Positions 23,196 to 57,112 of a DNA stretch of 64,000 nt are shown here, in pieces. The DNA lies in the NCBI RefSeq assembly GCF_044324785.1, contig NZ_CP172127.1. One strand, written 5' to 3'. Under the pieces are notes generated by a model, which saw only the letters and a list, made by a program, of their open reading frames with translations, searched no databases and was not told the origin of the DNA. The translations under genes and the position numbers were made by a program. The DNA comes from Escherichia coli. Lineage in GTDB: Bacteria > Pseudomonadota > Gammaproteobacteria > Enterobacterales > Enterobacteriaceae. How positions within the stretch are numbered: the first letter of the stretch is position 1; each line of letters opens with the position of its first letter.

Positions 23196-23689
23196 CAGAG
23201 CACTGTAGAGGCTGCGGTTTTATCTGTGAGGACTGGCAGCAAGATTTCCAGCCTCTTGATGGTGGGCCTGTGCAATCGTTATCAGATGCGTATAGCGATT
23301 ATACAGTGCTGCTATTGATAGCAGCTGAAAGCGAGATATCCGTACCAGAATGGCTCGCTCATTCTGAAGGAACGACGGTAATTGTGATTGCAGAACACAA
23401 TGCCCGTTTGCTGACTGGTCCGGCTGGTGGGGCTGTAGCATTGATCCATTATCTGAATGAAATCTGTCATTCCAGAGAAACCGCTGTCAATGACGCATTT
23501 TGTCGTACGTTAACACGAGGAAGTCTGGCTATCCCGCAATGCCATCTTCTTTCGTAATGGATTGAGAATGCTGGATTTTTAATTATATTACGCGCAGTAT
23601 TAATCGCGTAAATGTTTTGCGGTCAGCAACGGTGGGGATCCATTGTTCTGTTCAATGAATACCATCATACAATTGAATCAGGAGTCGGT

Positions 23690-36880: not shown

Positions 36881-39800
36881 ATGAGCGGAAAACCGGCAGC
36901 ACGTCAGGGCGATGCCACAATGAAAGGTGGCCCGATAGTCCAGGGGTCGGCAGGCGTGAGGATTGGCGCGCCAACCGGCGTGGCCTGTTCAGTGTGCCCC
37001 GGCGGATTCACTTCCGGTAACCCGGTGAATCCGCTGCTCGGTGCAAAAGTACAGCCCGGCGAAACCGATTTCGCGCTGCCCGGCCCGTTACCGTTCGTGC
37101 TCTCCCGCACCTACAGCAGCTACCGGACGAAAACCCCTGCGCCCGTCGGTATCTTCGGTCCTGGCTGGAAAGCACCCTTTGATATCCGCTTACAGATACG
37201 CGATAACGAACTGATACTCAATGATAACGGTGGCAGAAGCATTCATTTTGAGCACCTGTTTCCCGGTGAGGATGGCTTCAGCCGCAGCGAATTATTCTGG
37301 CTGGTGCGCGGCGGCGTGGCGAAACTGAATGAAAGTCACCGTCTTGCCCCACTCTGGCAGGCTCTGCCGGAAGAACTCCGCATGAGTCCGCATATTTATC
37401 TGGCGACGAACAGTCCGCAGGGGCCGTGGTGGATACTCGGCTGGAGTGAGCGGGTACCGGGTGTGGATGAGGTGCTGCCTGCGCCATTGCCGCCGTACCG
37501 GGTGCTGACCGGCCTGGTGGACCGCTTCGGGCGTACCCTGACCTTCCGGCGTGAGGCAGTTGGCGAATTTACCGGGGAAATCACCGGCGTGACCGATGGC
37601 GCAGGCCGTCAGTTCCGCCTGGTGCTGACCACGCAGGCGCAGCGGGCGGAAGAGGCCCAGCAGCAGGCGGTTGCAGCCGGAGCAAAACGACCAGATATCC
37701 CGGTTTCATTGCCGGACTATACAGAATATGGCCGGGATAACGGCATCCGCCTGTCAGCGGTGTGGCTGGCGCATGACCCGGAATACCCGGAGAATTTACC
37801 TGCCGCGCCACTGGTGCGCTACGACTGGACGCCACGCGGTGAACTGGCGGCGGTGTATGACCGCAGCGGTACGCAGATGCGCCACTTTACTTACGATGAT
37901 AAATACCGGGGCCGGATGGTGGCGCACCGTTACGCAGGCAGGCCGGAGATGCGTTACCGCTACGACGACATCGGGCGCGTGACGGAACAACGTAATCCGG
38001 CGGGTTTAAGCTACACCTATCAGTATGAGAAAAACCGCATCATCATCACCGACAGCCTGAACCGGTGCGAGGTGCTGCATACAGAAGGCGAAGCCGGGCT
38101 GAAACGGGTGGTGAAAAAAGAGCACGCTGACGACAGCGTCACACAGAGTCAGTTCGATTCCATTGGCCGCCTTCAGTCACAGACGGATGCGGCAGGCCGG
38201 ACGACAGAATACAGTCCGAATGTGGTGACGGGTCTCGTCACACGCATCACCACGCCGGACGGCAGGAAATCGGAATTTTACTATAACAACCAGAACCAGT
38301 TAACCTCAGCATCCGGGCCTGACGGACTGGAAATGCGCAGGAAATATGATGAGTACGGGCGTCTGACGCAGGAAACCGCTCGCAACGGCGATATCACCCG
38401 CTACAGTTATGATAATCCGCACAGTGAATTACCCTCTGCAACTGAAGATGCGACGGGTAGCCGCAAGCAGATGACGTGGAGCCGTTACGGGCAGTTACTG
38501 ACTTTCACCGACTGCTCAGGCTACCAGACCCGTTATGAATACGACCGCTTTGGTCAGATGACGGCGGTCCACCGTGAGGAAGGTGTCAGTCTTTACCGCA
38601 GCTATGACAGCCGTGGTCAGTTAATCTCGGTGAAAGATACGCAGGGCCGTGAAACGCAGTATGAGTACAACGGTGCAGGCGACCTGACCGCCATTATCAC
38701 GCCAGACGACAACAGAAGCGAGACACAGTACGATGCGTGGGGAAAGGCCGTCAGTACCACGCAGGGCGGGCTGACGCGCAGCATGGAATACGACGTTGCC
38801 GGACGTGTCATCAGCCTGACCAACGAGAACGGCTGTCACAGCGACTTCAGTTACGATGTGCTCGACCGCCTGATACAGCAGAGCGGCTTTGACGGGCGGA
38901 CGCAACGTTACCGTTACGACCTGACCGGGAAACTCACGCAGAACGAGGATGAGGGGCTTGTCACCCTCTGGCACTACGACGAATCGGACCGTATCACACA
39001 CCGCACGGTGAACGGCGAACCGGCAGAGCAGTGGCGGTATAACGACCACGGCTGGCTGAAAGAAATCAGCCACCTGAGCGAAGGTCACCGGGTGGCGGTG
39101 CATTACGGCTATAACCGTAAGGGACGTCTCACCGGCGAGCGCCAGACGGTGCATAACCCGGAGACGGGGGAACTGCTCTGGCTGCATGAGACAAAACACG
39201 CCTACAACGAACAGGGTCTGGCAAACCGCGTCACGCCGGACTGCCTGCCTGCTGTGGAGTGGCTGACCTACGGCAGCGGTTACCTGGCGGGGATGAAGCT
39301 GGGCGACACGCCGCTGCTGGAGTACGCGCGCGACCGCCTGCACAGAGAAACGGTGCGCAGCTTTGGCAGCATGGCAGGCAGTAATGCCGCATACGAACTG
39401 ACCAGCACATACACCCCTGCAGGCCAGTTACAGAGCCAGCACCTGAACAGCCTGGTGTATGACCGTGACTACGGGTGGAATGACAACGGCGACCTGGTGC
39501 GCATCAGCGGCCCGCGACAGACGCGGGAATATGGCTACAGCGCCACGGGCAGGCTGGAGAGTGTGCGCACCCTCGCACCGGACCTGGACATCCGCATCCC
39601 GTATGCCACCGACCCGGCGGGCAACCGGCTGCCGGACCCGGAGCTGCACCCGGACAGTACACTCACGGCGTGGCCGGATAACCGCATCGCCGAAGACGCG
39701 CATTACCTGTACCGTTACGATGAATACGGCAGGCTGACGGAGAAGACGGACCGCATCCCGGCGGGTGTGATACGGACGGACGACGAGCGGACCCACCACT

Positions 39801-41062
39801 ACCACTACGACAGCCAGCACCGTCTGGTGTTCTACACGCGGATACAGCATGGCGAGCCACTGGTCGAGAGCCGCTACCTCTACGACCCGCTGGGACGGCG
39901 AATGGCGAAAAGGGTATGGCGGCGGGAGCGTGACCTGACGGGGTGGATGTCGCTGTCGCGTAAACCGGAGGAGACATGGTACGGGTGGGACGGCGACAGG
40001 CTGACGACGGTGCAGACTGACACCACGCGTATCCAGACGGTGTACCAGCCGGGAAGCTTCACGCCGCTCATCAGAATCGAAACAGACGTGACCGAACTGG
40101 AGAAAGCGCAGCGGCGAAGCCTGGCGGAGAAGTTACAGCAGGAAGGGAGTAAAGATGGTCACGGCGTGGTGTTCCCGCCTGAACTGGTGCGGCTGCTGGA
40201 CAGGCTGGAGGGGGAAATCCGGGCAGACCGTGTGAGTGACGAAAGCCGGGCGTGGCTTGCGCAGTGCGGGCTGACGGTGGAGCGGCTGGCGGCACAGATC
40301 GAGCCAGTTTATTTGCCTGAGCGAAAAATACATCTTTATCACTGCGACCACCGGGGACTGCCGCTGGCGCTTATCAGTACTGAAGGTGCAACGGAATGGC
40401 GTGGGGAGTATGACGAGTGGGGGAATCAGCTTAATGAGGAGAACCCGCATCATCTGTTCCAGCCATACCGCCTGCCGGGGCAGCAGTACGATGATGAATC
40501 GGGGCTGTGCTATAATCGTTATCGTTACTACGAGCCGTTACAAGGGAGGTATATTACACAGGACCCGATTGGGTTAAATGGGGGGTGGAATTTATATAAA
40601 TATCCGCTGAATCCAATAAATTATGCAGATCCTCTTGGCTTAGCCGTAGATATAAACCACTTCCCAGTCAACGAAGACATACGAAATTATGCAGAGAAAG
40701 TTTGGAATAATCCTAATATCATTACAATTGGAACACATGGTGATCCTCAATCAGTATATGATGAAAATTATAATAAGATAGATGTCAAGACATTAGCTAA
40801 TGAGGTTCGAAATCATCCTAAATTTAAACCTGGAATGTCAGTAAGACTGTTATCCTGTAATACAGGAAAAGGAAATAACTCTTTTGCACAGCAATTGGCA
40901 GATGAACTAGGTGTGAGAGTCTATGCTCCTGACCAATATGACTGGTACTATTCAAATGGTAAGGTAGAGCCTTGGGGAGGATTCTATGATGCAAACAATC
41001 AATTGCAAATGGACACGAATCAGCCTGGACATGAGTTTACATTCAAGCGAAGGAAACCATAG
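36881..41062 (+). CDS. Rhs-family polymorphic toxin: N-terminal PAAR-like domain, YD-repeat core, variable C-terminal toxin domain
   Basis: 1393 aa; N-terminus [38 protein letters not shown] (PAAR-like); many YD repeats (..RYRYDDIGR.., ..YEYDRFGQ..); core ends in the PxxxxDPxGL motif ([14 protein letters not shown]); SD AAGGAT upstream. Confidence 0.95.
40643..41059 (+). other. Variable C-terminal toxin domain of the Rhs protein (139 aa, low GC)
   Basis: Sequence after [144 protein letters not shown]. Clear drop in GC relative to the core. Confidence 0.8.
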
Positions 41063-41064
41063 GT

Positions 41065-41667
41065 ATGAGGTATTTTCTCTTTATATTTATAACAATCCCC
41101 CTTATCTCTGGAGGTCATATGAGTAATGATAGCGAAAAGATAATATCAACATATTCGCTCAATTTTTTATCACCAGATGATGTGAGGAAAGAAGAACTTA
41201 AGGCATCACAAGGTGATAGTGATGCTGCATTTAAATTGTACAAATATTACCTTTTTTGCGAGCCAAAATCATACAGAAAACAGCACGAATGGTTAATAAT
41301 ATCGGCAAATAATGGAAATGCTATAGCTCAATATAACTTATCAAGAGAACTTGAGTCAGAAGGAAAAGTAGATGAATCAATACAATGGCTGAAAAAATCA
41401 GCGGAACATGGTAATAATTATGCACAATATCAGATGTCAAAATATTTATTAAAAATAGGTGATATTAGAGGATCGGAATATTATCTAAACTTATCTGCGG
41501 ATAACGGATGTGTATTTGCAATAAAAGATATTATCAAAAATATGATGGATAGTGGAAGGTACGATGACGCCCTCATTTGGGTTGAAAAATTGAAAAAATT
41601 GTATCCTGACACAAATACCGAACTTTACATACAAAAAATAACGCAGAAAAAAAAGCAATCCAAATAA
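41065..41667 (+). CDS. Putative cognate Rhs immunity protein with Sel1-like repeats
   Basis: Starts 2 nt after the rhs stop; AT-rich; Sel1/TPR-like repeats (..GNAIAQYNLSRELESEGKV..SIQWLKKSAEHGNNYAQYQMSKYLL..). An alternative start ATG at 41119 has a strong GGAGG SD. Confidence 0.7.
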   Translation: MRYFLFIFITIPLISGGHMSNDSEKIISTYSLNFLSPDDVRKEELKASQGDSDAAFKLYKYYLFCEPKSYRKQHEWLIISANNGNAIAQYNLSRELESEGKVDESIQWLKKSAEHGNNYAQYQMSKYLLKIGDIRGSEYYLNLSADNGCVFAIKDIIKNMMDSGRYDDALIWVEKLKKLYPDTNTELYIQKITQKKKQSK

Positions 41668-41955
41668 TAATTATATATAATTACTCGCACAGAGTTACAG
41701 TATTGCAAGAAATATATCTAGCATATAAAGTCGCCGCCAGTAAAGATAAAGTACTGTGTAATCCTTCCTCCCATATAGGGGTAAAAACTTAGCATCCAGT
41801 GCCCTCGACTTAATTTTTAGTATTTTCTCTGTGAAGTGACACTTCGTAGGATTCAGTTCATGTTTACCAGAAAAAAGGTGGTCATTCTGGTGGTCTTGAC
41901 AATCTCGATTTTTTGTTTTAGCTTTCCAATCAGCCAATTAATGGCTACGGCGATC

Positions 41956-41975
41956 CCAGTCAGAGGAGCCAAATT
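41956..41975 (+). repeat. Island right-end direct repeat (attR): copy of the tRNA-Asn 3' end
   Basis: ccagtcagaggagccaaatt is identical to the 3' end of asnW plus 4 nt of flank (31412..31431). Confidence 0.8.
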
Positions 41976-42032
41976 TTAGTTTTGAGACATCTCTATGAGT
42001 CTCAAGACAGTTAAAAAATAAAAATTATTTTT

Positions 42033-42067
42033 ACCCGGTTACCTTGTAAAAAGTGACCGGGTTTTTT
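42033..42067 (+). terminator. Rho-independent terminator (probable ancestral asnW terminator, displaced by the island)
   Basis: Hairpin acccggttaccttgtaaaaagtgaccgggt followed by a run of 6 T, just after the attR repeat. Confidence 0.6.
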
Positions 42068-42419
42068 GATTTCTGTGTTTCGTGCGCTTAATCGAGTCTC
42101 ACGCTTCGGTGAGCAAATTGCCCCCCAACAGACATCACGATTCGCAAGGTCAAAAAATTCGTTCCGTGAAGTACCATACAAAGGTATAGAGAAAAATGCC
42201 TTATGCGGGATGTTGCTGTCGCGTTTTTATCGGGAAACTAAACGTAATTGCCACTTTGTCTTCTGTAATCAGAAAAAGAAAACCTGGAATTTTAATAAAT
42301 ATTATTTCTCTGGGGCCGGTATTTTTATAATCAATATGATGGGTTGAATATTATATTTTTTATAGGAATATATGAGATTAAAGAAATCTGCCATAAAGAC
42401 AGATTCCTTTAAAATATAA

Positions 42420-43136
42420 TTAGAGATTTGCGACGTTATGATAAACTTTTTGAACATCGTCGTCATCTTCAAGGGCATCAACAAGCCCTTCAAAGATTTC
42501 TAAATCTTCTGGGGAAAGCTCAACTTCAGATTGAGCAATCATTTCTAATTCTGTTGTTGAGAACTCAGTGATTCCAGCTGCTTTTAGAGCCGCGATTCCT
42601 TTATGAAGGTCAGTAGGTTCGGTATAAATAACAATGTTACCTTCTTCTTCAGTCACATCACGAACATCAACTTCAGCTTCAAGTAAAATTTCAAAAATAT
42701 GGTCAGGGTCTGTTCCTTTAAATACAATCACACCCGTATTGTCAAACATATAGCTGACAGAACCTGCCGCTCCGATATTGCCGCCTTTTTTATTGAAAAT
42801 TGTGCGAACGTTAGCAATCGTACGGTTAACATTGGAAGTCAAGGTCTCAGCGATAATCATTGAGCCATTAGGACCAAAGCCTTCATAACGGCCCTGCACG
42901 AACGTTTCATCTCCGCCGCCTTTGGCTTTATCAATTGCTTTATCAATAACATGCTTTGGAACTTGTGCCTGCTTTGCTCGTTCAATAACGAATTTTAAAG
43001 ATGTGTTTAATTCTGGATCGGGTTCACCTTGTTTGGCAGCGGCATAGATTTCTACACCGAATTTTGCATAAATTTTAGACGTCGCACCGTCTTTAGCCGT
43101 TTTTTTAGCAACAATATTGGCCCATTTACGTCCCAC
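42420..43136 (-). CDS. yeeN: YebC/PmpR-family probable transcriptional regulator YeeN
   Basis: 238 aa, [37 protein letters not shown].. YeeN. Confidence 0.93.
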
Positions 43137-43477
43137 TGGAATGATCTCCTCGAAAATTTATTTACATTACTGGTAAATCGTTAACATGTGTTAATTCGGA
43201 ATATTATATCATAACAGGAAAAATCTCGTCTATTAGAAATAAAAATATTCTAAAGCCATAATATTATATTTAATCTCATAAAAACTAATGTCGTTGGCGG
43301 ATTTTTTTATAATTGTGTTTTGAAAGCATACTTGCTTTTAATATGTGGAAATCATTAAGGCTAGAATAAAACTCGTATCCGCCCCAGGAAGCAAACAGCC
43401 TGCTTTATTGCAGGCTATTTGCTGGATGACTTACTAAATCCTTCACATCTATTCCTGATAAAAAGGAACAGAATTTA

Positions 43478-44932
43478 TTACCGGAACGGCGGCTCATTAA
43501 ATGTTCGTAATTTACGTGAATGCAGTCGGTCGCCTTCTGCGCGCAGCAAATCGATCGCCCGAATGCCAATTTGCAGGTGTTCGGAAATAGCGCCTTCATA
43601 AAAACGGTTAGCCTGACCGGGAAGTTTAATCTCACCATGCAACGGTTTATCTGAAACACACAATAGTGTCCCGTATGGCACGCGGAAACGATATCCTTGC
43701 GCGGCAATGGTTGCACTTTCCATATCAATTGCTACGGCCCGGCTTAAGTTAAAACGAAGTGCAGAAGCTGAGTAACGTAATTCCCAGTTCCTGTCATCTG
43801 TGGTTACCACAGTGCCAGTACGTAGCCGCTGTTTAACTTCCTCACCGGGCCTGCCGCTGACTAACTTGGTAGCGTCATAAAGCGCACGTTGCACTTCAGC
43901 AATGCTCGGAATAGGAATATCGGGCGGCAGTACCGCATCAAGAACGTGGTCATCGCGTAAATAAGCGTGTGCAAGTACATAATCTCCAATGGCCTGGCTT
44001 TCACGTAAGCCACCACAGTGACCAATCATCAACCAGACATCCGGGCGTAGCACCGCCAGATGATCGCAGATGGTTTTTGCATTTGACGGTCCCACGCCAA
44101 TATTCACCAGAGTAATACCCTGACCATCGGCGGTAATTAAATGCCATGCTGGCATCTGGTGTTTTTTCCATGCAAGGTCGGAAATGGCTTCTTCTGGCGC
44201 TTTGGTTTCGGCGGTGATCCAGTTCCCGCCAGCACAAGAAAGGGCAATGTAGGGACTATCAGGGTCGAGGATCTGGCTGCATCCCCAACGAACGAATTCA
44301 TCCACATAACGTGTGTAGTTGGTAAACAAGACGAACGGCTGAAAATGTTCAACTGGCGTACCGGTGTAATGGCGCAACCGCGCGAGGGAAAAATCGACGC
44401 GGCGCGCATCAAAATGCGATAGCGGGGAGAATTCCGTTGGATGATAAATGCCGTCTGCAGTTTCATCGCCAATTTGCGCCAGTTCTGTTGTCGGGAAGTA
44501 GCGAGTTAACCCAGCGCTCATTGAGCGATCAAGGGTCAATTCAGAGCCATCGATGACATAAGGATAAGGGATTTCATGCTGCGAGGGTTGCACCGAGATA
44601 TGCGCACCATAATCCTGATACAACAACGTAAGTTGTTCATTGAGATACGAACGAAAGAGAGTAGGGCGAGTAATCGTGGTGGTGTAGCTGCCTGCGTGGG
44701 TAAAGCGACCAAATGCGCGCGTTTTGGGGGGATTGGTTGTGCTACCGTCCCAGGTTACGGTCAGTGATGGATAGACAAAAAGACCTTGTTTGCGGGCGTT
44801 TTCATCAGGTAATTCGCCACTTGTAATATAGTTGCCAATGGCGTTGCGTAAAGCGACTACAGATTGCTCATACAACGCGTCGAGTTTATCCAGTGCCTGA
44901 GCTGGGGTCAGACCGGAGCCCTTATTATTCAT
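43478..44932 (-). CDS. amn: AMP nucleosidase
   Basis: MNNKGSGLTPAQALDKLDALYEQSVVALRNAIGNY.. Amn (484 aa); internal ATG of ORF 43478..45088, preceded by AGGAG. Confidence 0.93.
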   Translation of the reverse strand: MNNKGSGLTPAQALDKLDALYEQSVVALRNAIGNYITSGELPDENARKQGLFVYPSLTVTWDGSTTNPPKTRAFGRFTHAGSYTTTITRPTLFRSYLNEQLTLLYQDYGAHISVQPSQHEIPYPYVIDGSELTLDRSMSAGLTRYFPTTELAQIGDETADGIYHPTEFSPLSHFDARRVDFSLARLRHYTGTPVEHFQPFVLFTNYTRYVDEFVRWGCSQILDPDSPYIALSCAGGNWITAETKAPEEAISDLAWKKHQMPAWHLITADGQGITLVNIGVGPSNAKTICDHLAVLRPDVWLMIGHCGGLRESQAIGDYVLAHAYLRDDHVLDAVLPPDIPIPSIAEVQRALYDATKLVSGRPGEEVKQRLRTGTVVTTDDRNWELRYSASALRFNLSRAVAIDMESATIAAQGYRFRVPYGTLLCVSDKPLHGEIKLPGQANRFYEGAISEHLQIGIRAIDLLRAEGDRLHSRKLRTFNEPPFR

Positions 44933-45033
44933 GTGTGTCTCCTGTTCCATACAATTACCGCACATCCGATAGTATGTCACAGAAATGTGAAACAAAAGTG
45001 TAAGACGAAGATCGGATGATCTTCGCCAGGCTA

Positions 45034-46350
45034 TCAAGCGCGTTGATTGTCTTTCATCAACAAAGCGGTCATTGCGGAAATCAGGCATCCAGCCAGCAAA
45101 TAAATAGCGACGCTATGCCAGTTCCCGGCAAAGTAAGTGATGAGTGCAGCGGCAATAAAAGGTGTAAATCCACCGCCAACCACACTGGCAACCTGATAAC
45201 CGACTCCAGCACCACTGTAGCGATAACTGGCACCAAACATTTCGGTAAACATCGGTTGTTGCACACACACCACCATGTCATGCGCAATGTTTGCCAGCAT
45301 TATGGAGAAGAAAACTATCCAGAAAATAGATTGTGCTTCAAGCGCCATAAAGAAAGGAAATGCGCTCAACGTTCCGATCAACGCGCCTGTGATATAAACC
45401 CTGCGGCGACCAAAACGATCGGCAAGCCAGGCAAAACAGGGAATTGTCAGGCAGCTTAATCCACCGACCAGCAAACCAATATTAAGGAAAAGTTCGCGCG
45501 GTAACCCCATATTCTGGGTTGAATAATTAAGTGCGAAGGCGGTAACGATGTACATCGTCAGCAACTCGCACAGTCGTAGCGCAATAATCTTCAGGAAAGC
45601 ACCGGGATGTCGTAATAGTGCTTCGATAACCGGGATGCGTTTTTTCGCGGCCGCTTGATTATGTTGCTGTTGTTCAAATTCCGCGGACTCCTCCATGCCA
45701 TTGCGCACCCACAATGCTCCCAGTACCAGTACGATGCTAAACAGGAAAGGAATGCGCCAGCCCCAGCTTAAAAACTGTTCGTCAGTCGTCATCATACTGA
45801 TCAATGAAACCAGTCCAGTTGAAAGCAGTAAACCTACACCGTAGCCAACTTGTACACCGCTACTGTAAAAGGCTTTTTTATTTTTCGGAGCACTTTCAAC
45901 AGAAAGCAACGCTGCGCCTCCCCATTCGCCGCCGACGGCAAATCCCTGTATGGCACGCAGCGTCACCAGTAAAATGGGGGCCCACCACCCAATGGTCGAG
46001 AAGGAAGGAAGAATACCAATCAAGGCTGTCGCGATACCCATCATCCAGACGGTCAGCATTAACATGCGCTTACGTCCCAGTCGGTCGCCAAAGTGACCGA
46101 AAATGACACCGCCGAGTGGTCGGAAAAGGAAGCCGACACCAAAGGTGGCAAATGCGGCGAGCGTTCCCATCGCCGGGCTTACTTGCGGGAAAAACTCGCG
46201 ATTAAACACCAGTGCGGCGGTAATGCCATAGAGTAAAAAATCATACCAGTCGACGACGGCACCAGCGAAACTGCCGAACGCAGCTCGTCGGGCGCGACTT
46301 AACGAAAGCGTCCCTTCATCGGGACGAGTGGAGATGAGCGTGGAGTCCAT
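45034..46350 (-). CDS. shiA: Shikimate transporter (MFS)
   Basis: 438 aa, MDSTLISTRPDEGTLSLSRARRAAFGSFAGAVVDWYDFLLYG.. ShiA. Confidence 0.93.
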   Translation of the reverse strand: MDSTLISTRPDEGTLSLSRARRAAFGSFAGAVVDWYDFLLYGITAALVFNREFFPQVSPAMGTLAAFATFGVGFLFRPLGGVIFGHFGDRLGRKRMLMLTVWMMGIATALIGILPSFSTIGWWAPILLVTLRAIQGFAVGGEWGGAALLSVESAPKNKKAFYSSGVQVGYGVGLLLSTGLVSLISMMTTDEQFLSWGWRIPFLFSIVLVLGALWVRNGMEESAEFEQQQHNQAAAKKRIPVIEALLRHPGAFLKIIALRLCELLTMYIVTAFALNYSTQNMGLPRELFLNIGLLVGGLSCLTIPCFAWLADRFGRRRVYITGALIGTLSAFPFFMALEAQSIFWIVFFSIMLANIAHDMVVCVQQPMFTEMFGASYRYSGAGVGYQVASVVGGGFTPFIAAALITYFAGNWHSVAIYLLAGCLISAMTALLMKDNQRA

Positions 46351-46601
46351 AATGATCCTGTTTGTACTGTCTTTTTATAATTAGTATGGAAAAGGTAACT
46401 CACATTGCCGTCGATCTATAAACGAACCTTATGAGACTACCTCGACAGAGCGCATCTGCAAATGATTTTATGGCTGATTAGCGGCAACATGAAAAATTCG
46501 CTGGAAGATGAAAGCGCAGGAGTTGCTGGTGTTGTTTAAGGATTAAGCAGAGGACCCACAGGTTCGAGATATGAAACATAAAAGTCCGCATATGCACAAA
46601 A

Positions 46602-47716
46602 TTGCACCCTGATGATTCTGATAGACTGCATTGCATTATAACCAGTAGGGAGGCGAGGTTAGTTATGTTTTTAGTATCATTGTTGAGACGTATTGCATTT
46701 AGTTACTACGATTATAAAGCTTATAATTTTAATATTGAAAAAACAGACTTTGTTGTCATACATATCCCCGATCAGATTGGCGATGCTATGGCCATCTTTC
46801 CAGTTATTCGGGCGATTGAAATGCATAAAATAAAGCATCTTTTAATTGTTACTTCGACTATTAATTTAGAAGTCTTTAATTCGCTCAAACTTGAACAGAC
46901 TAAATTAACATTAGTCACAATGACTATGCAGGATCACGCAACATTAAAAGAAATAAAAGATTTAGCGAAGAACATAACACAGCAATACGGTACGCCGGAT
47001 CTTTGTATAGAGGCGATGCGTAAAAAGAACCTGAAAACGATGATATTTATCAGTCAGTTGAAAGCAAAAACGAATTTTCAGGTTGTTGGTTTAACCATGA
47101 AGTGCTATTCCCCTTTGTGTAAGAGCGCGTCCCGGATGGATCAGAATCTCCGGGCTCCTGTACCCATGACATGGGCATTTATGATGCGTGAGGCGGGTTT
47201 TCCAGCAGTCAGGCCAATATATGAATTGCCACTAAGTAAGGATGTACTCGATGAGGTGCGCGAGGAAATGCGATCGTTAGGATCTTACATTGCGCTTAAT
47301 TTAGAAGGTAGCTCGCAGGAACGTACATTTTCATTATTGATTGCAGAAAATCTAATAGCAAAAATTCAAAGTGAAACAGATATACCAATAGTGATCGTTC
47401 ATGGACCAAAAGGGGAAGATAAAGCAAGGGTATTAGTGGATTGTTATAATAATGTCTACCGTTTATCCTTATCACCCTCGATTAAACGTTCAGCAGCAAT
47501 CATAAAAGATGCTTATATCGCAATAACTCCTGACACCTCAATATTACATATGGCAAGTGCCTATAATACCCCGTTGTTGCAATTTATGCTGATTATAAAA
47601 CGCGATGGCCCGCAATGGCCAATGTTTCGGAGTCAGTCGTCGTTGGGCAAAAAATTGACAATATAAGTCTGGATGAATTCGCAAAGGCATTAAAAAGTGT
47701 TTTGGCGAGAATATGA
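46602..47716 (+). pseudogene. yeeL: YeeL-like glycosyltransferase (family 9 / heptosyltransferase-like), -1 frameshift near nt 47570
   Basis: ORF 46602..47666 (..PDLCIEAMRKKNLKTMIFISQL..ITPDTSILHMASAYNTP) switches frame in a C4 run (47569-47572); the alternative frame continues ..PVVAIYADYKTRWPAMANVSESVVVGQKIDNISLDEFAKALKSVLARI to a stop at 47714-47716. Confidence 0.6.
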
Positions 47717-48299
47717 AGCAGTACGTATGCAAAGTAATGCCGATCTGTTATGAACGGTGGTGTCATCAATACTCTGAGGCTGGTCAATCATCACAGAAAG
47801 CCAGCCTTTGGATCAAAGCTGTACTCACCGAAAATGATCATAGTCACACCGAACGCGATTCAGGTGGAACTAAAACAATGTAATGTATTTCACCATCATA
47901 AATAAGACAACCTGAACTTAAATCTCCGTTAACAGGCATACATTATTATGAGTGGTACTGATGTAATTTGTAATATTGAAATATGAACTGATATTGTTTG
48001 TTCGTCCTGACATATCTTCCTCCATGATGTAATTAGCTAAACATTAACGTAATTTGACTGCATAGCAACAATGATAGCCATCAAAAATAGCTCATGTACT
48101 TCGTTTTCCGCTGGCGTGGAACAGGTGGTTATACCATGTGTGAAAGCGTTTATTAAAAAAGAAAGGAGGCTCAACTATCTTCAGACTAACAGGGAGGTAT
48201 GGGAAAATGCAGGTATATTAATGGAGCGTTTGACAGCAAACGAATGTAAAAGGCAGAGCGCCCCGAATGGAGCACTCTGTAAGAAAATATAGCGAAAAA

Positions 48300-56915
<8,616 letters not shown>

Positions 56916-57112
56916 GCTTACCTTCCCTGAACGAGCTAACATAAATGCGCCCTTTCTAGCACAGCGAAAAAAAGTAAATCCTGATAGCAATATGATTGAA
57001 AATTAATAACTTTTCGTTAAGCAGTTTTGAGTGTGAGTTGCAAGAGGGGAGACTACTGAATTACTCAAGTTTTATAATCGAGGGGAAAATGGTGATGGCG
57101 TTCATAGCAAAA

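Follow-up and report, generated by a model that had tools for sequence, protein, structure and literature searches.

The yeeL gene in the stretch of Escherichia coli DNA analysed here (64,000 nucleotides, hereafter the window) is very probably a young, clone-specific and fixed frameshift pseudogene. In the proposed course of events, an ancestor of an E. coli clone lost one C from a run of five Cs, with replication slippage as the most likely cause. Translation then leaves the native frame after Pro303 and runs through 30 unrelated residues to a stop, and the product is without its last 47 residues; in the intact enzyme these are predicted to supply two beta-strands, the last of the nucleotide-sugar-binding domain, and the C-terminal helix. 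The lesion has since passed unchanged to many isolates. This is an ordinary case of a well-known type of event, and yeeL is already a known pseudogene in the reference strain.

The yeeL locus and the break in its reading frame

The gene lies on the E. coli chromosome in the order amn, shiA, yeeL and yeeJ, which is also found in K-12 and other strains. In the window, amn (43478–45088), shiA (45034–46350) and yeeJ (48300–56990), a large inverse-autotransporter gene, are on the minus strand, and yeeL is on the plus strand. The initial annotation had started yeeL at 46602. Its start should be placed at the ATG at 46665, because this position matches the starts of the RefSeq coding sequences in strains N3, O157 and PCN033 and because only the 333-amino-acid product of the ATG start is present in the public protein collection, from which the 354-amino-acid product of a TTG start is absent. 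Position 46602 is merely the first TTG of the mechanical open reading frame, and the segment from 46602 to 46664 (plus strand) is a 5′ extension of that frame which falls outside the gene, in the divergent intergenic region between shiA and yeeL.

Codons 1 to 303, identical to those of N3 yeeL, occupy positions 46665–47573 of the plus strand; for a predicted GT9-family glycosyltransferase, they encode an intact N-terminal domain and the greater part of the C-terminal domain. Positions 47568–47573 read A-CCCC-G, and the frame opened by the ATG at 46665 passes through the lesion as AAT ACC CCG TTG TTG (N301 T302 P303 L L). Comparison with N3, O157, PCN033 and K-12 places the one-base deletion, from an ancestral C5 to C4, in the run at 47569–47572 (plus strand); Pro303 is kept, and the first wrong residue is 304. 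The 30 out-of-frame codons (LLQFMLIIKRDGPQWPMFRSQSSLGKKLTI) and a premature TAA (47664–47666) follow at 47574–47666 on the same strand. The resulting product of 333 amino acids has residues 1–303 of the native protein and then the 30 wrong residues, and residues 304–350 are lost.

The missing part of the gene is still present in the DNA. The next frame, read from 47573 on the plus strand, encodes VVAIYADYKTRWPAMANVSESVVVGQKIDNISLDEFAKALKSVLARI with a stop ending at 47716; these 47 codons and their TGA, stranded in the wrong frame relative to the start, correspond to residues 304–350 of N3 YeeL, and their translation agrees residue for residue with the C-terminus of the intact 350-amino-acid N3 protein (WP_116836502.1). 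N3 (CP031609) is the closest complete genome, and all 1053 bp of its yeeL are identical to the window except that the run reads CCCCC. Judged from the sequences, the match of the out-of-frame tail to the native C-terminus is far beyond chance, because 12 positions of the tail do not vary in an alignment of 22 family members with identities as low as 52%. The comparison with N3 thus confirmed two proposals of the initial annotation, namely that the frame breaks at a C4 run at about 47569–47572 and that the downstream frame carries a conserved-looking C-terminus to 47716.

Reality, direction and inheritance of the deletion

A sequencing or assembly error, in which the true run has five Cs and one base was dropped by a homopolymer miscall, was suspected first because homopolymer indels were as many as SNPs. 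Over a near-identical 19 kb (29.5–48.5 kb) the window and N3 differ by three one-base homopolymer indels and two SNPs, and such an excess of homopolymer indels is a pattern typical of long-read assemblies. The window also carries a private G5 to G4 change at 23633, and a frameshift in N3 amn (G6 to G5) was found in none of the 18 other contigs read. Against this explanation, the identical 333-amino-acid frameshift product is present on 110 public contigs (119 index blocks) from NCBI, ENA and Logan assemblies. These contigs belong to several independent projects and run series (SRR311…, SRR8095891, SRR24949975, ERZ2188333x, GCA_958309045.1), and they are mostly short-read assemblies, some made with SPAdes at ~50x. 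All nine C4 contigs whose DNA was checked read CCCC, and one of them, the independent assembly L007, shows no indel and a single SNP relative to the window across 21 kb. Furthermore, the window has the seven-SNP haplotype that is linked to C4 (see below), so that C4 is expected by descent. The occurrence of the product on 110 independent contigs ruled out an error, for which we see almost no remaining probability: the deletion of the C is real, and the sequencing error that the initial annotation had listed among its options was not borne out.

Several other positions at which the window and its relatives differ were recorded. With PCN033 and GMF054 as outgroups, two further changes proved specific to the window, at 23633 and 35573, and there are also deletions specific to N3. 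The G5 to G4 change at 23633 is intergenic, upstream of cobU, and N3, PCN033 and GMF054 agree against the window at this site. At 35573 the window has an extra G (GCGCGGC, compared with GCGCGC in N3 and PCN033) in an island near an integrase remnant. Neither change breaks an annotated gene, and the idea that the extra G repairs a gene was dropped, since it alters just a short unannotated open reading frame. The island (~31500–42000) lies beside a tRNA-Asn gene, between yeeO and yeeN, and carries a tyrosine recombinase, integrase remnants, a 1393-amino-acid RHS-element core protein and a TPR protein; it is common to N3, PCN033 and GMF054 and is absent from K-12 at this site. At 44726, in amn, G6 is found in the window and in each of the 18 other contigs read. 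N3 has G5 (position 45708 of its contig), which makes its amn a "frameshifted" RefSeq pseudogene; this G5 probably concerns N3 alone, as an assembly error or a private mutation, and not the window. Between yeeN and amn, the window alone has an A at 43200, where the 19 related contigs all have C.

The direction of the yeeL change was read from other alleles. The site is CCCCC in N3, O157:H7, PCN033 and GMF054 and CCCCT, which is in frame, in K-12; a five-base in-frame tract was found in every other E. coli allele examined, and all 22 aligned full-length homologues, from five genera, are ungapped and in frame through the site. Because the other E. coli alleles have the five-base tract and the 22 homologues read through ungapped, we take C5 as the ancestral state and the frame in the window as disrupted relative to its intact orthologues. 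The comparison with intact yeeL homologues which the initial annotation had proposed as a check therefore gave a consistent answer, with the intact alleles in frame at the site and C5 in N3. The exact 60-mer with C4 occurs in 0 of 5426 complete genomes, in a search at 98% identity in which C4 with an additional SNP is indistinguishable from C5 and which gives no frequency for other alleles. A full-length copy of yeeL is present in 4934 of the 5426 complete E. coli genomes.

To describe inheritance of the deletion, a region of 11.7 kb (40300–52000) was compared among the window, nine contigs with the frameshift product and 10 contigs with the intact product. The intact 350-amino-acid product of the same allele had been found on 10 contigs (26 blocks) by the same exact-sequence look-up that found the frameshift product; of the 119 frameshift-product blocks, 24 were read and nine places are shown, a sample that a rare revertant could escape. 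At positions 48441, 49062, 49578, 49603, 49668, 49776 and 50324, the window and the nine C4 contigs have G, G, T, C, A, G and T, whereas all 10 C5 contigs have A, A, A, G, G, A and C. Tract length is thus perfectly linked to seven SNPs located 0.9–2.8 kb from the tract in the 19 contigs and the window, among which neither a revertant on the C4 haplotype nor a new slip on the C5 haplotype was seen. The product look-up would retrieve both kinds of exception, as a C4-haplotype revertant would have the intact product and a C5-haplotype slip the frameshift product. The C4 group also carries private and subgroup SNPs, such as the A at 46510 in three contigs, which show that it has diversified after the deletion without reverting.

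These observations bear on phase variation, the reading in which the C run is a contingency tract that switches YeeL on and off in the population. The site is a homopolymer, the allele occurs in nature with either C4 or C5 and no other difference, and Neisseria, Haemophilus and Campylobacter offer typical examples of phase variation in genes for surface-glycan transferases. As in lgtA, lgtC and lgtD of Neisseria and lic2A and lgtC of Haemophilus, a glycosyltransferase frame is broken here by a change in homopolymer length. Unlike those genes, yeeL has a tract of only four to five bases, in two states that are strictly tied to the flanking haplotype, and the perfect linkage implies that no recurrent switching was sampled among the 19 contigs and the window. 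Only C4 and C5 were found for this allele, and the products expected for C2, C3, C6, C7 and C8 are absent from ~15 billion proteins. Contingency tracts are usually seven or more bases long, and in many E. coli alleles, K-12 included, the run is interrupted by a synonymous T (CCCCT). Moreover, phase variation in E. coli normally operates through DNA inversion or Dam methylation. Phase variation, another option of the initial annotation, is accordingly very improbable. The linkage, the 110 contigs and the ancestral C5 instead favor the remaining option, a fixed pseudogene, and the sequences indicate that yeeL C4 is one stably inherited mutation and not a switch.

From 40300 to 47568 the C4 and C5 haplotypes are identical apart from the indel. 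Downstream, the seven differing sites fall in the 3′ part of yeeJ, and many more follow in the Ig-like repeats (beyond 52000); this distribution suggests that recombination or gene conversion left a boundary shortly after yeeL. The yeeJ gene itself is intact in the window, with a mechanical open reading frame of 2896 amino acids (2880 called in relatives).

Family, fold and the part of YeeL that is lost

The assignment of the gene in the initial annotation to yeeL, a GT9-family glycosyltransferase, was upheld by Pfam and by a model of the intact protein. The intact N3 allele matches Pfam PF01075 from residue 233 onward with 29 bits (E 8e-7), above the gathering threshold of 22 bits. The 333-amino-acid product of the window scores 16.3 bits, below that threshold, because the match is cut at residue 305. 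A PDB search with the single YeeL sequence gave no match and a family profile aligned ITPDTSILH of YeeL with VSVDTGLSH of WaaC only weakly (E 0.07), and the fold was therefore placed by structure prediction and Foldseek. The AlphaFold2 model of the intact protein has a mean pLDDT of 85.6 and a pTM of 0.84, and its best PDB matches in Foldseek are 3TOV (GT9), 1PSW (WaaF) and 2GT1, 2H1H and 6DFE (WaaC), with TM of 0.62–0.72 and E of 7e-13 to 5e-10. On the model, the intact protein has a two-domain GT-B fold like that of solved GT9 enzymes.

YeeL shares with WaaC and WaaF (PDB 2GT1, 2H1H, 1PSW) the GT-B fold (TM 0.62–0.69, probability 1.00), the Pfam family and a common D-T-x-x-x-H nucleotide-sugar loop, but its sequence identity to them is 13–15% and it lies outside the waa cluster. 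In this loop (D-T/S-G-x-x-H), D290, T291 and H295 of YeeL do not vary within the family, and S takes the place of G at the third position. Orthology to WaaC, WaaF or WaaQ, the heptosyltransferases of the LPS core, was considered and rejected, as the NCBIfam equivalog scores are far under their cutoffs: 36.5 against 185.3 for TIGR02193 (HepI), 19.5 against 134.6 for TIGR02195 (HepII), 17.4 against 170.2 for TIGR02201 (HepIII) and 15.6 against 467 for RfaQ (NF007742). Collectively, profile and model point to intact YeeL as a distant sugar transferase of the GT9 family. A literature search for yeeL yielded author-name noise and no paper on YeeL function or activity and no phenotype; the yeeJ–yeeL interval is mentioned just as an integration or phage attachment site.

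The frameshift falls directly after the segment PDTSILH...NTP, which the profile search aligns with the ADP-heptose loop of WaaC, VSVDTGLSH...DRP (residues 258–274). In the model, the lost residues 304–350 form two strands (304–308 and 322–326) and a helix (336–349). Twelve positions of this tail are invariant in the 22-sequence alignment, namely A306, Y308, K312, T313, R314, W315, M318, E323, V327, G328, E338 and F339. The C-terminal helix of GT-B proteins packs back onto the N-terminal domain. Because the 12 invariant positions, two core strands and the C-terminal helix are lost, the truncated YeeL is very probably inactive or unfolded, as judged from the alignment and the model.

Homologues of YeeL with 52–73% identity are found in E. 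albertii, Pseudocitrobacter, Erwinia and Rosenbergiella. The nr database also has a "glutathione transporter" assigned to Rattus norvegicus that shares 74% identity with YeeL across 88% of the length; contamination by bacterial sequence or wrong labelling almost certainly explains this entry. The proximity of yeeJ raised a role for YeeL as the glycosyltransferase partner of the YeeJ adhesin, of the Aah/TibC type. This was rejected, as the two genes do not stay linked outside Escherichia: in Pseudocitrobacter the order is amn-shiA-yeeL-mtfA and yeeJ is missing, the Rosenbergiella homologue has an MFS transporter gene upstream and no adhesin gene adjacent, and no adhesin gene neighbors the Erwinia homologue. 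No TibC-type structure is among the 50 best Foldseek matches of the YeeL model. In Erwinia aphidicola (CP188307, L026 8001–9134), a 60%-identical homologue lies inside a P2-like prophage, between tail tube/tape-measure genes and tail-fibre/baseplate genes. This position is typical of lysogenic-conversion cargo and, by analogy, hints that the family modifies a surface glycan.

Repeated inactivation of yeeL and its meaning

K-12 MG1655 has the same yeeL gene (b4497) in the same setting (amn-shiA-yeeL-yeeJ), and there too it is inactive, being a pseudogene in the reference annotation, but the two lesions differ. In K-12 the tract is CCCCT and the lesion is a nonsense change from CAA to TAA at codon 235 (window position 47367, where the window has CAA); in the window the lesion is the change from C5 to C4 at codon 303. 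Since the K-12 pseudogene carries a different lesion, yeeL has decayed repeatedly, with the K-12 and window inactivations independent of each other. Up to 765 of 5426 complete genomes contain the exact K-12 61-mer with the nonsense codon, which marks the K-12-type nonsense change, on sequence grounds, as a second, much commoner and independent knock-out of the gene.

Two explanations accept the deletion as real and differ from the preferred one in what it does to the gene or to the clone. The gene might still work, either through a −1 ribosomal slip at ACC-CCG or through reassembly of the 303-residue piece with a 33-amino-acid peptide that starts at the ATG at 47615. In principle, the tRNA-Pro in the P site could re-pair from CCG to the overlapping CCC, and the downstream open reading frame of 33 amino acids exists and is called as a gene on one contig. 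However, ACC CCG TTG contains no slippery heptamer of the X XXY YYZ type, and the sister lineage and all orthologues are in frame, which implies that there is no conserved recoding signal; programmed ribosomal frameshifting was rejected on these two grounds. The 33-amino-acid frame, in turn, is without strand 304–308 and the invariant YxxYKTRW motif. Continued function of the gene by either route is extremely unlikely. The other explanation is that the loss is adaptive, the knock-out of YeeL being of benefit to the clone (for example, because phages or the host would no longer meet a surface glycan that they recognize), so that C4 came to outnumber C5. The frameshift form is indeed ~4–11 times commoner than the intact form in public data (110 compared with 10 contigs; 119 compared with 26 blocks), up to 765 complete genomes carry the independent inactivation of the K-12-type lineage, and the Erwinia homologue is cargo among P2-like prophage tail genes, a typical place for surface-modifying conversion genes. 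These archive counts, however, reflect sampling of a successful clone and are explained equally well by hitch-hiking; most complete E. coli genomes (4934 of 5426) keep full-length yeeL, and the literature holds no phenotype for the gene. An adaptive loss is on balance improbable, although it deserves some weight. That the repeated inactivation of yeeL (by the C-run deletion, the K-12-type nonsense change and possibly truncated Shigella forms) was selected and not neutral is likewise doubtful, and slightly more so.

No further yeeL mutations were found within the C4 group, so that relaxed selection is not yet visible in the sequence; their lack also fits a recent event. For annotation, yeeL in the window should be treated as a frameshifted pseudogene, and neither as an assembly error to be polished away nor as a phase-variable locus. 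A convenient marker for the clone is available in the combination of the C4 allele with the linked yeeJ SNPs.

For the biology of E. coli, yeeL is dispensable, and the species seems able to lose it freely. If the loss were selected after all, YeeL would be adding a sugar to the surface at a cost to cells exposed to phages or the host, and the homologue in the P2-like prophage of Erwinia would fit such a surface-modifying role. The frameshift in the window contributes one more independent knock-out of yeeL and may be mildly useful for finding the role of YeeL.
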